Of a stretch of DNA of 64,000 bases, positions 14,500 to 56,925 are shown piece by piece. Location: the NCBI GenBank assembly GCA_964016885.1, contig OZ024756.1, positions 14,012,001-14,076,000 on the forward strand, read 5' to 3'. The position numbers and the translations under genes are program-made. Each line of letters begins with the position of its first letter. Positions within the stretch are counted from its first letter, which is position 1. The DNA comes from Eledone cirrhosa. Its lineage: Eukaryota. The notes beneath the pieces were generated by a model. That model searched no databases and had not been told where the DNA came from. It saw nothing but the letters and a program-made list of their open reading frames with translations.

Positions 14500-14535
14500 T
14501 CTTCTGATGAAGGATTAACATCCGAAATATTAAGA
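14500..14535 (+). ncRNA. minimal hammerhead-like motif (PLE type)
   Basis: TCTT-CTGATGA-A-GGAT taac ATCC-GAAA-TATT-AAGA; same element family as 4008-4043 (shared downstream flank). Confidence 0.6.
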
Positions 14536-14648
14536 CTCTTTTCTTACTACAACAAGCATTAAACTAATATATATCATCATTGTACTATTTCATTCTCTTA
14601 TGTTGTTTTTCTTCAATCACTATATATATATATATATATGTATATGTA

Positions 14649-22835: not shown

Positions 22836-23279
22836 GTGTGTGTATATATATGTGTGTATATATATATATATGTATATATATGTGTATATGTATATATATG
22901 CATATATATATGTGTATATATGCATATATATATGTATATATATGCATATATATATGTATATATATGCATATATATATGTATATATATGCATATATATATG
23001 TATATATATGCATATATATATATGGTATATATATGCATATATATATATGGTATATATATGCATATATATATATGGTATATATATATGGTATATATATGCA
23101 TATATATATGTATATATATATATATATTGTTATGCTTTGGGAGGGTCATGTTGCTAATAAGAAACACACGCACCAGTTGCTTTCACTCCAATTTATTATA
23201 AATTAAATTTATAAATTTAAGAATTTATAAATTTCCGGTTGGTTGGATGGTTCCACAACCGGACGGTTGTTCATATATT

Positions 23280-23322
23280 GTCAAAGTTCTTTCGTCACAC
23301 ATTCTGTGACCTCTTCAGTGAC
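23280..23322 (-). ncRNA. type I hammerhead-like motif
   Basis: rc: GTCA-CTGAAGA-G-GTCAC agaatgt GTGAC-GAAA-GAACTT-TGAC. Confidence 0.6.
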
Positions 23323-30405: not shown

Positions 30406-30461
30406 ACTGCCTGATGAGGTCATAGCCATTCAATGGCTATCATCGAAATATATATAGCAGT
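30406..30461 (+). ncRNA. type I hammerhead ribozyme (minimal, PLE-like)
   Basis: ACTGC-CTGATGA-GGT c ATAGCCATT c AATGGCTAT c ATC-GAAA-TATATA-TA|GCAGT; helix I ACTGC/GCAGT; predicted cleavage after 30456. Confidence 0.88.
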
Positions 30462-30951
30462 AAATAAAGGATTATGAGTTCATGCAATTGACTTATGTTT
30501 CGTCACTATATATATATATATATAATCATCTTTTAAAGCAGCCATTAAATGATGATGATGATATATATAAACAGTTGTGTCCTGCATGGATGTAAAGCAT
30601 GTAATGCATCTCTAACATGTATATATATGAATGCAAATAACAAACCATGTTTAACCTTTAGCACGCTAATAATTTTCATGAGTTGTTTGCCTTGCCACTG
30701 CATTATCTCTTTAAGGGGAGATTATTCTTACGGTGCCCTGTGTCGCCTTCAGGGCATTTAAGGTTAATATACATCTCCCAATTGTTTATGAGAGACATCC
30801 GGAAAGAGAGTTAAATATACATTATATTTTAAGATGGAGGGTTAAATATATATGTACCTCATTTTAAGACAGAGGGTTAACTCTACTTCAATTGTACGGT
30901 TTTAATTGTTAAACTTGCACGCTCTGGCTTAAGTATCGGGAATCATGCCTC

Positions 30952-30988
<37 letters not shown>

Positions 30989-31122
30989 TAGAAGGGGTAT
31001 TTAATTTGTTGGAAGTCCGACAAATATAAATGTTTATAACTGATTTAGAGCACTCAACTGGTTACTGGAGTAAATATTCAATGATATTAAATAAATGGAA
31101 ACTATATTTATAAAACCATATT

Positions 31123-31185
31123 TATTTTATTATATATATTTCAAGGGTACCAAAACACATTGGTACGCTTTCTTCAGATAAAATA
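31123..31185 (-). ncRNA. type I hammerhead ribozyme, left arm of palindrome
   Basis: rc: TATTTTAT-CTGAAGA-AAG c GTACCAA..TTGGTAC c CTT-GAAA-TATATA-TA|ATAAAATA. Confidence 0.85.
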
Positions 31186-31297
31186 CAAAGTTTGTTTTAT
31201 AAATAGAGACATATCGGTTGGATATTCTCTGGATAGAATATCCAACTGATAAGGTATGATTTTCATGGGTATGTCTCTATTTATAAAACAAACTTTG

Positions 31298-31360
31298 TAT
31301 TTTATCTGAGGAAAGCGTACCAATGTGTTTTGGTACCCTTGAAATATATATAATAAAATA
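31298..31360 (+). ncRNA. type I hammerhead ribozyme, right arm of palindrome
   Basis: TATTTTAT-CTGAGGA-AAG c GTACCAA..TTGGTAC c CTT-GAAA-TATATA-TA|ATAAAATA; predicted cleavage after 31352. Confidence 0.85.
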
Positions 31361-31425
31361 AATATGGTTCTATAAATATAGTTTCCATTTATTTAATATC
31401 ATTATATATATATATATATATATAT

Positions 31426-46345: not shown

Positions 46346-46458
46346 CAGCCAGCGCGTAGGGCCCCCATTTGCTCGCTATAGTGAGAGATGGAGGCAGTGA
46401 TAGTGGGAGTGTGGTTCTTTTGTGTTCAGACCTGATGTATATATGTGTACATAATGGA

Positions 46459-49590: not shown

Positions 49591-49739
49591 GTTTCTACTT
49601 TTAGCACAAGGCCAGCAATTCACCAGTGTATTACTGGTACTTTATTTTATCGATCCCGTAAGGATGAAAGGCAAAGTTAACCTCGGCGGGATTTGAACTC
49701 AGATTGGAAAGGGCCGTAACTCTATGTGTCAAACCAAAT

Positions 49740-50112
49740 AATGATATTAAATAAATGGAAACTATATTTATAAAACCATATTTATTCTATTATATATATT
49801 TCAAGGGTACCAAAACTTTTGGTACGCTATCATCAGATAAAATACAAAATGTTTTATAAATATACCTTAACGGTTCAAGTTATCCCTTGGTCATGTCAAA
49901 TATTTATAAAACATTTTGTATTTTATCTGATAATAGCGTACCAAAATTTTTGGTATCCTTGAAATATATATAATAGAATAAATATTGTTTTATAAATATA
50001 GTTTCCATTTATTTAATATCATTGAATACTTACTCCAGAAAACTGTCGAGTGCTCTGAATCAGTTATAAACATCTATATTTTTTGGATTTCCAACAAATT
50101 AAATATCTCTTC
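49740..50112. mobile_element. second copy of the fold-back hammerhead element (more degenerate)
   Basis: arms nearly identical to 31081-31403; one core CTGATGA (minus strand, 49830-49836), the other mutated to CTGATAA. Confidence 0.75.
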
Positions 50113-52640: not shown

Positions 52641-53660
52641 GTAAGTTGCTATATCTCGCTTCAGTGACCCCCACCATGGGCCAGATAGAGGTTCTGCCTG
52701 TTCTAGATGTTCAGAGTTAGAGCATCAGACAACATGAATTGTGGCATATAGTTACGGCCCTTTACGTTCTGAGTTCAAACCCCACCGAGGTTAGCTTTGC
52801 CTTTCATCCTTATGGGATCAATAAAATAAAGTACCAGTAATGTACTGTGCGTGACAGCTCACACCTATGCAGGTTTAGCTGGCCTCCTCCAAGGTATATC
52901 TCGTTGGAGGAGTCTTGGGTGATTTAATGATAGGGACCCCAGTCCCTATCATCTCATTCCTACAGCTGAATAAACTGGAGCAACGTGAAATAAAGTGTCT
53001 TGCTCAAGGAAACAACACATCACCTGGTCTGAGAATTGAACTCACAACTTTTCGATTGCAAGCCCAATGCTCTAACCACTAAGCCATGCACCTTCACTAG
53101 TAATGTACTGGGGTTGATTTAATCAACTTTCCCCTCTTCAAATTGCTGGCCTTGTGCCTGGTTTGGCAGAATCCGTAGAGCGTCAAGATACCATGCTTTG
53201 CAGCATAGAGTTGTGGTCCTTTACGTTCTGAGTTCAAATCCCACCAAGGTTAACTTTGCCTTTCATCCTTACTGGGTCGATAAAATAAAGTACCAGTAAT
53301 TTACTGGGGTAATTGCTGGCCTTGTGCCAAAAGTAGAAACAATTATTATTCCCCAGTGAATTGGAAGGAAGTGGTAAGTTTTAATCAGATCTGTATTTTA
53401 GGGGCTATTATAAGTAAGAAATATATTTACTAACCTCTAGGGCAGAGGTTCCTAATCTAGCATAAGGTTTACTTACTTGGGGAGTAAATTTGTTGATCAT
53501 TAAGTTACATCGTTACTGGTTTCAGTCATCTGACTGTGGCCATGCTGGGGCACTGCCTTCATAGGATTTAGTCAATCATATCAACCTTAGTACTCCTTTT
53601 TTTTTTTTTTTCAAGCTCCTAATTTACAAGACAGAACCAGTAATTATTGACAGAGACAGA

Positions 53661-53693
<33 letters not shown>

Positions 53694-53868
53694 ATATATA
53701 CTTATACATGACAAATGATGATGATGATGATGTATTTATATATATATGTAGGTGAGTTTTATTGTAGCTCAATAAAGCAATGCAAATATCGGATAAGTAG
53801 CACTCTACAGTTTGTAGGACTGGAGTATAAATAATATAAGATCAAAAGATGGTTAAAAGAGTTCCAAG

Positions 53869-53939
53869 TATTTTATTATGCGCATTTCAAAAACAAATAT
53901 CATCATGAGATGATATCTGCGTTTTCATCAGATAAAATA
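53869..53939 (-). ncRNA. type I hammerhead ribozyme, left arm of palindrome
   Basis: exact reverse complement of 54058-54128. Confidence 0.88.
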
Positions 53940-54057
53940 GGGATACATGATATAAAGGTTAAAAAATACTTGTGAATAGTGAAGTTTTAAATCAACATAT
54001 GCTGATTTTAAACTTCACTATTCACAAGTGTTTTTTAACCTTCATATCATGTATCCC

Positions 54058-54128
54058 TATTTTATCTGATGAAAACGCAGATATCATCTCATGATGATAT
54101 TTGTTTTTGAAATGCGCATAATAAAATA
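54058..54128 (+). ncRNA. type I hammerhead ribozyme, right arm of palindrome
   Basis: TATTTTAT-CTGATGA-AAA c GCAGATATCATC tcat GATGATATTTGT t TTT-GAAA-TGCGCA-TA|ATAAAATA; palindromic helix III ATGCGCAT; predicted cleavage after 54120. Confidence 0.9.
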
Positions 54129-54194
54129 CTTGGAACTCTTTTAACCATCTTTTGATCTTATATTATATATATATATATATATATATATTTGCAG

Positions 54195-54337
54195 GTTTAT
54201 TAGGAATTTTTAAAAAGCCGCCCTTTCTGTCGAGGCCCCTAATTTGGAGTATTCTACAGGATCTGACCACCAAACGGTCACCCCCGGAACAGGATGAGAC
54301 GATATATGAGTTTATTAAGAGAAGATTTGGAAGTGAG
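54195..54337 (+). CDS. PPOX: PPOX exon 4 (LLGIFKKPPFLSRPLIWSILQDLTTKRSPPEQDETIYEFIKRRFGSE)
   Basis: ttgcag / gtttgt; DETxxxFxxRRFGxE motif. Confidence 0.93.
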
Positions 54338-56491: not shown

Positions 56492-56925
56492 TCATCATCA
56501 TCATCACCATTTTACGTCCGTTCTTCCACACTAGCATGGGTTAGACGGGTTGTCCTGTTGTGAGTAGTGTCCGGTCGGCTGACCATGTCTTGCTCATACG
56601 GGAACTGATTCTGGCTTTATTTCTACAGCTGGATGCCCTTCCTAACACCAACCTCATTTACAGTGTGTGTCGGGTGCTTTTTTTTTTTTCAGTGGCGCCT
56701 ACACGTCCACTTTACAGTGTGGGCTGGGTACATTTTTGCCGTGGCACCTCCACGACCACTTTGCAGTGGAATGATAGGGACCCCAGTCCCTATCGTCTCA
56801 TTTCTACAGCTGAGTAAACTGGAGCAATGTGAAATAAAGTGTCTTGCTCAAGGAAACAACAACGTCACCCGGTCCGGTCCGAGAATTGAACTCACAACCT
56901 TTCGATTGCAAGCCCAATGCTATGA
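56492..56925 (-). mobile_element. SINE family A copy (long tail variant), inverted relative to 55710-56105
   Basis: reverse complement of 55710-56105 over most of its length. Confidence 0.88.

Follow-up and report, generated by a model that had tools for sequence, protein, structure and literature searches.

A hammerhead-bearing palindrome in a PPOX intron of Eledone cirrhosa and its probable origin from two joined ends of a Penelope-like retrotransposon

Penelope-like elements (PLEs) of the Hydra clade have one open reading frame (ORF) coding for RT and, C-terminally, for a GIY-YIG domain, carry a canonical hammerhead ribozyme near their 3' end and lie in (TA)n targets. They are recognized by RW-, DKT, CxCX5C linker, CxxC and CxH motifs, and one of the described members is from octopus (PMC8557442). 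Some PLEs form inverted-pLTR units, in which the pLTRs stand head to head, the junction is palindromic and a tail is found on a single arm (PMC3846280; PMC8557442). The minimal type I hammerheads of PLEs have a long helix II and a helix III that is palindromic and so fits dimer formation, and dual hammerheads approximately 100-700 bp apart on opposite strands have been tied to truncated PLEs (PMC4209133). With this architecture, PLE hammerheads show poor cleavage, as dimers (PMC4209133; PMC6765202), and PLE hammerhead cleavage has been reported only with protein (PMC11167929). For Poseidon PAc, in vitro work describes a PLE protein, predicted to be a dimer, that cuts and extends both strands of an AT-rich target, with unprocessed RNA and two RT start sites that bound the tail (PMC11167929). 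Transcription of Drosophila Penelope starts inside the pLTR (PMC2377424). The origin of inverted pLTRs and one-sided tails, and the role of the hammerhead, are stated as open (PMC8557442; PMC11167929).

We analyzed a 64,000-nucleotide stretch of Eledone cirrhosa DNA (the window), for which a preliminary description had reported a 336-bp near-perfect palindrome between (TA)n tracts, with one complete type I hammerhead per arm and one per strand, in an intron of the gene for protoporphyrinogen oxidase (PPOX). These features were all recovered. The palindrome (53831-54166) was found as an inverted repeat with arms of 173 nt each (53826-53998 and 53999-54171), 97% identity and a spacer of 0; the 336 bp are this repeat minus its TA-ambiguous ends. 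The arms differ at 4 of 167 positions (54002, 54009, 54030, and 54043), none of them in the hammerhead, and positions 53749-54166 fold as a single hairpin (-266.5 kcal/mol, z -35.7, with none of 100 shuffles as low). The left (TA)n target tract, at 53737-53747, was assigned from the sequence and from the ends of family copies, which also fall in (TA)n; the right tract (54167-54188) lies directly 5' of the acceptor TTTGCAG. The left arm (53747-54000, minus strand) is recognized by pLTR identity as the 5'-truncated 3' end of an element, with the long form of that end. It includes a one-sided tail of approximately 76-85 nt (53747-53830, minus strand, boundary blurred by TA) that spans the interval between the two 3' end sites of the family. 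The tail is element sequence and not flank: it is common to 41 of 100 mapped arms and in full-length copies continues towards the ORF start. The right arm (53997-54166, plus strand) is also 5'-truncated and has no tail; it ends at the short 3' site, as do 59 of the 100 arms. The two arms meet at a CATATG centre (53996-54001), which is the preferred 5' end of the family and whose ATAT is common to both.

The hammerhead sense to PPOX (54058-54128, plus strand) was read from the sequence as type I, and its fold and covariation agree. Helix I has 8 bp (54058-65/54121-28), the core consists of CUGAUGA (54066-72) and GAAA (54109-12), and helix II (54073-54108) comprises 3 bp, a C.U mismatch and then 12 bp. 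The palindromic helix III, AUGCGCAU, occupies 54112-19 and is followed, with overlap, by the AUA triplet (54118-20), so that the predicted cut falls at 54120/54121. The copy antisense to PPOX (53869-53939, minus strand, predicted cut 53877/53876) is identical in sequence and fold (z -3.37, 0 of 200 shuffles). The first helix II pair in the window is A-U, where G-C is usual. Long helix II and palindromic helix III are as in the minimal type I PLE hammerheads described in PMC4209133, whereas the 8-bp helix I, the A-U or G-U first helix II pair and a C.Y mismatch set the window family apart. A search with Rfam models, the check proposed earlier, gave no hammerhead family among its 18 matches at E<=10.

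Conservation of the helices was assessed among genomic copies. In two subfamilies, 243 of 243 cells of the 27 pairs are paired, mostly through A-U/G-U and C-G/U-G exchange, and 60 of 500 shuffles do equally well. Among nine family variants, 99.4% of cells are paired and 6 of 18 pairs change on both sides, at the helix II base and in helix III, where GCGC becomes ATAT. None of 500 shuffles reaches the covariation score and 28 of 500 reach the number of both-side pairs, for rows that were hand-picked from a descriptor search requiring helices I and II and thus lean towards structure. Helix covariation across genomic copies, which the preliminary description had named together with cleavage as a test of its reading, is seen across related families. 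The C.Y mismatch after the third helix II pair (54076/54105) is kept in 9/9 variants while the adjoining pairs covary, and it may mark a tertiary or protein contact. Two copies are predicted to cofold as a double hammerhead whose helix III has 8 bp (-43.7 kcal/mol).

On sequence motifs, each arm is assigned to the 5'-truncated 3' end (pLTR) of a Hydra-clade Penelope-like retrotransposon, and the palindrome is almost certainly a head-to-head pLTR insertion of such an element. The earlier suggestion that the hammerhead is of the Penelope pLTR type was upheld, and the proposed genome-wide search with the arm led to a neighboring PLE ORF. The arm is a high-copy repeat, and in longer copies it lies approximately 1.1 kb downstream of an ORF for RT with GIY-YIG-like motifs, in the same sense, with the pLTR hammerhead sense to the ORF; the unit is approximately 3.85 kb, including a 1.1-kb 3' UTR. 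The left arm is 97-98% identical to the pLTRs of ORF-bearing copies (L031-L033, L056, and L057). Fifteen long loci were read for ORF and pLTR structure. In L056 and L057 a broken ORF is flanked by pLTRs with 96-98% identity to the window; L058 and L060 combine sister pLTRs (89-91% identical) with an 821-codon open frame. Within these 15 loci no intact ORF stands beside a 97-98% pLTR; the intact ORFs pair with the 89-91% sister pLTRs. The pLTRs are arranged directly in L056, L058, and L060 and inverted in L057, L061, and L062, with two 3' end sites, and 3' flanks of family copies show insertion in (TA)n.

The 800-aa protein encoded by the L058 ORF (sister subfamily), modelled with 15 homologues, reached a pLDDT of 77.9, and its top Foldseek match is telomerase RT (TERT; E 4.7e-8); a single-sequence model of the ORF (pLDDT 33.8) was discarded. 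When the ORF sequence or its alignment was searched against Pfam and PDB, no RT match for the query emerged, and one of 16 alignment members has a weak RVT_1 match. The ORF contains a YRDD motif and, by eye, GIY-YIG-like motifs at its end; direct profile and fold searches gave no match for the latter domain, and PF01541 is present in 31-50% of the members of Atlas neighbors at 0.96-0.97. The motifs of the Hydra clade read SDKTNNLY (DKT), CNCRIKNKC (CxCX5C linker), CNLC (CxxC), and CLH (CxH), and the RWK position reads RRLRWT or RRLRWI, with R-W kept and K changed. The Neptune clade, first suggested by the Zn linker, was rejected in favor of the Hydra clade as defined in PMC8557442. Between the RT thumb and the Zn linker of L058 (L058:3733-6132, residues approximately 580-656) lies an Asn-rich, low-confidence insert, similar to the N-rich inserts of rotifer Penelope (PMC3846280).

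The family resembles the Hydra clade in its single ORF, the hammerhead near the 3' end, the (TA)n targets and the motif chain. It differs in its tail of approximately 80 nt (vs 30-40), in RWT/RWI at the RWK position, in the length of its unit and 3' UTR and the Asn-rich insert noted above, and in its tens of thousands of copies. Hydra-1_Obim has, by eye, the same motif chain, and differs in pLTR and in the sequence of its listed hammerhead; the search word of the window family is absent from the portion of the PMC8557442 supplement that was searched. We found no description of this PLE family in a literature search that left subscription papers largely outside, and supplements or repeat databases may include it; to all appearance it is a so far undescribed family of the Hydra clade and a very abundant one. 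Head-to-head pLTRs, the one-sided tail and opposite-strand dual hammerheads are already in print, and the element belongs to the EN+ PLEs and works as they do. The palindrome shares with the inverted-pLTR units its head-to-head pLTRs, junction palindrome and single-arm tail, and differs from those of PMC3846280 in that the whole insert in the window is only two pLTR ends.

Genome-wide, the arm behaves as a young repeat (857 candidates, of which the best 40 were scored, with top matches of 98-99%). Two subfamily words have 1,212 and 2,101 exact matches, the hammerhead core shared by the window and the sister subfamily has 18,636, and perfect 28-nt palindrome centres number 747, all exact; reversed control patterns for the word counts gave 0 matches. 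A piece of the ORF gave 34,286 genome candidates, of which the best 150 were scored. The first 100 matches to the core on contig C1 include 33 close neighbors: 29 head to head (17 short pairs, 99-203 nt apart, and 12 longer), two tail to tail and two direct (approximately 3-4 kb apart). The spacing is 132-158 nt in 13 of the 17 short pairs, and by arithmetic 147 in the window palindrome. Extrapolation from this one contig end and its 17 pairs gives approximately 1,800 palindromes in the genome by length scaling and 3,200 by match-count scaling. Metazoan non-LTR retrozymes are similarly short and non-coding with a type I hammerhead, but they form direct tandem arrays, whereas the window family forms inverted pairs with no sign of unit copying; the class was rejected on the orientation of the close neighbors.

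Three such palindromes occur in the 64-kb window, two of them belonging to related families (31071-31412 and 49740-50023). One of these lies in PPOX intron 1 (49731-50045; 124-nt arms, 97%, 36-nt spacer, right tail). Its PPOX-sense core is changed to CTGATAA and its antisense copy retains CTGATGA, a single case that matches the trace expected of selection against sense cleavage. The other (30985-31412; 143-nt arms, 97%, 56-nt spacer, left tail) has (TA)n on both sides and both cores intact. Hammerhead cores of other families lie at 4003-4039 (-), 14504-14541 (+), 23276-23318 (-), and 30411-30462 (+); a loose hammerhead pattern matched 17 times vs 3.6 expected, and the fetched loci hold at least five unrelated hammerhead families. 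An abundant SINE-like repeat with a tRNA-derived head (Rfam tRNA, 31.3 bits) is found at 53025-53092 (-) and also at 46457, 55727, and 56800-56920.

The ends of the copies were mapped for the first 100 position-ordered arms on C1, in an arm coordinate u in which u1 is window position 54000 and the predicted cut follows u121. The 3' ends fall at only two sites, the short one (u161-173) and the long one at the tail end. Among the 32 adjacent inverted pairs in which both 3' ends could be placed, 29 combine a long with a short end, two are short+short and one is long+long, an excess over independent choice with P 5e-7 (28 of 30 when counted by hand). In eight of the 32 pairs the long arm consists of the tail only and the remaining sequence is in the other arm, which in five of these eight has the precise 5' end. 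The 5' ends are also clustered: 26 of 100 lie in a 6-nt window at u-4..+1, vs 34 across u2-127 (P 1e-22 against the local rate), and 22 of the 32 pairs have at least one arm, and 5 both arms, at this hot spot. Apparent 5' ends at u-267, u-461, -111, and -95 proved to be alignment breaks at subfamily indels. A second sample (40 stretches taken in order from core matches, mostly sister subfamily, skipping earlier matches) gave 20 of 64 arms starting at u-3..0 and, by hand count, 25 of 26 long+short pairs.

Few 5' ends are at the cut site. Only 2 of 100 lie at u121-123 (P 0.19), and 8 of 100 lie at u119-127 (P 0.004, uncorrected), a site beside the search word and AT-rich. In one pair (L129, G000:C1:70047321) the first base of both arms is the one immediately following the predicted cut, and with the u119-127 ends this pair makes cleaved RNA a possible template on occasion. 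A cap signature, as would mark the hot spot as a transcription start, was not found: a cap-type G precedes ATATG in 11 of 51 cases (P 0.18), a count that still includes templated C's and a few native-context variants. Several junctions carry short self-copies past CATATG, and target-site duplications are unreadable within (TA)n. The two arms of a pair carry the same allele in 86 of 98 polymorphic cells, vs 55% for random arms, in the position-ordered sample; this recount is our main figure, as an earlier one of 160 of 174 includes best-hit loci and duplicates. Twelve of 20 informative pairs agree throughout and eight differ at one or more polymorphic sites. A single RNA template is thus not universal, and gene conversion, or a single source copy that dominates, could also account for the allele sharing.

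We read the palindrome as two 5'-truncated pLTR ends joined head to head in (TA)n, likely in one event in which both target strands primed RT, and put the probability of this reading, and of the two-primer mechanism that we infer from it, at roughly 0.7. The RT-GIY-YIG protein would nick both strands of the (TA)n tract. One 3'-OH would start cDNA synthesis at the far site (window 53747) and so include the tail, and the other would start at the near site approximately 80 nt upstream (54166). Both cDNAs would copy RNA with an uncut hammerhead, usually from one source, and would stop at a fixed 5' end of the RNA (53997-54000) that is probably the pLTR transcription start, in keeping with the start inside the pLTR of Drosophila Penelope (PMC2377424); the two cDNA ends would then join through their self-complementary ATAT. 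The two 3' end sites, the long+short pairing, the tail-only arms, the 5' hot spot and the scarcity of 5' ends at the cut site fit priming of this kind on uncleaved RNA. The Poseidon PAc reaction is alike in its two RT start sites bounding the tail, its cutting and extension of both strands, its AT-rich target and its uncleaved RNA, but it belongs to another clade and, in the available part of PMC11167929, its two sites are not connected with the two ends of the target in a single insertion. Twin priming is a term from the L1 literature. Our literature search, with subscription papers largely outside it, found no paper describing twin priming in PLEs.

Several other routes could lead to a palindrome of this shape. 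A cDNA begun at the tailed end could run off at CATATG, snap back, copy itself and, at the short site rich in TA, be joined to the second end of the target; alternatively, the palindrome could arise by antisense self-priming (PMC3846280). The 747 perfect CATATG centres, the self-copies at junctions and the alleles common to paired arms are all as such a fold-back would leave them, and it accounts for a tail that is usually on one arm only. Where the long arm is tail only, however, neither arm copies the other, so these eight pairs cannot be explained by fold-back, and the published antisense self-priming does not fit them either; moreover, the arms are of unequal 5' extent in both directions, and some pairs (L022 and L071) carry two haplotypes at linked sites. 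We consider fold-back an unlikely general origin, and snap-back, which also happens, could have created some of the perfect palindromes. The end-site statistics bear equally on duplication and inversion of a solo pLTR at the DNA level after insertion, by repair or fork reversal at CATATG. This would leave unexplained both the second arm's own short 3' site in (TA)n and the long+short rule, and as a class it is largely refuted and has very little probability left, even with one pair that suits it, L070/L100, with 0 differences between arms and 20 shared private changes. At that locus (G000:C1:9943060-9943390) the 20 departures from the first subfamily are common to both arms, as expected of either the sister subfamily or DNA-level duplication.

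The palindrome had been put forward as an ambisense, non-coding element with ribozymes, which we take here as a self-standing, non-autonomous retrozyme- or MITE-like unit, transcribed and copied whole with both ribozymes working. Its near-uniform size (the 13 of 17 short pairs above) and its two intact hammerheads would suit such a unit, and a preprint (bioRxiv 10.64898/2026.07.22.740005) argues that retrozymes derive from PLE pLTRs. This interpretation is not supported: the arms are truncated ends of a protein-coding PLE, and because the filler at the junction and the length of the arms vary among loci, palindromes are built per insertion and not copied as a unit. Both arms reach the 5' hot spot in few pairs, spacer lengths form a continuum up to full-length elements, tandem arrays of the retrozyme kind are absent, and fold-back is predicted to abolish the ribozyme. 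A unit-copied palindrome is accordingly highly improbable, and the ribozyme on the minus strand simply results from the geometry of the insertion.

PPOX is a heme-synthesis gene, and the identity of the host gene given in the preliminary description was upheld: exons 4 and 5 match solved protoporphyrinogen oxidase structures (E 1.2e-4 and 3.9e-7, respectively), and six exons join by GT-AG into 268 codons without a stop. Exon 4 (54195-54337, plus strand), identified by protein match and splicing, lies outside the element and starts 74 nt past the predicted sense cut, in line with the earlier figure of about 75 nt. Between the hairpin and the acceptor there is only (TA)n-TTTGCAG, the hairpin ending approximately 25 nt upstream of the acceptor. 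There is no protein-coding sequence in the insert, and in the intron it is likely to be inert. The 168-bp hairpin that it would form in PPOX pre-mRNA is predicted to prevent the sense ribozyme fold, as had been proposed, with a pair probability of 0.0 for helices I and II when both arms are present. Masking would not be special to the palindrome, since in a single arm starting at the 5' hot spot helix I already has a predicted probability of 0.025, rising to 0.86 only without the first 40 nt; rival predicted folds vary between copies. Because of this low value in a lone arm, and because such ribozymes need help from a dimer or protein, masking is unneeded for persistence in introns, which requires no selection for masking as an explanation. 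In RNA starting at the hot spot, the 5' part of the pLTR (54023-54035) is able to base-pair with helix I's 3' strand (54123-54134), which is predicted to act as a built-in switch that turns the ribozyme off.

As a single locus the insertion is ordinary, and its value lies in the family, whose approximately 18,600 exact hammerhead copies give statistics on mechanism and which seeds introns with long perfect hairpins. More broadly, we see an even chance that inverted pLTRs with a tail are the footprint of two-site twin priming, in which a dimeric RT-endonuclease uses one start site per cut strand on one uncleaved RNA and 'strong-stop'-like cDNAs pair through ATAT, so that double-hammerhead palindromes would be fossils of insertion intermediates and cleavage would not be a template step. 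The family statistics can discriminate between twin priming and self-priming, and two RT starts and one RNA 5' end are named for assay. If this holds true, thousands of double-hammerhead palindromes in this genome would record a PLE insertion intermediate.
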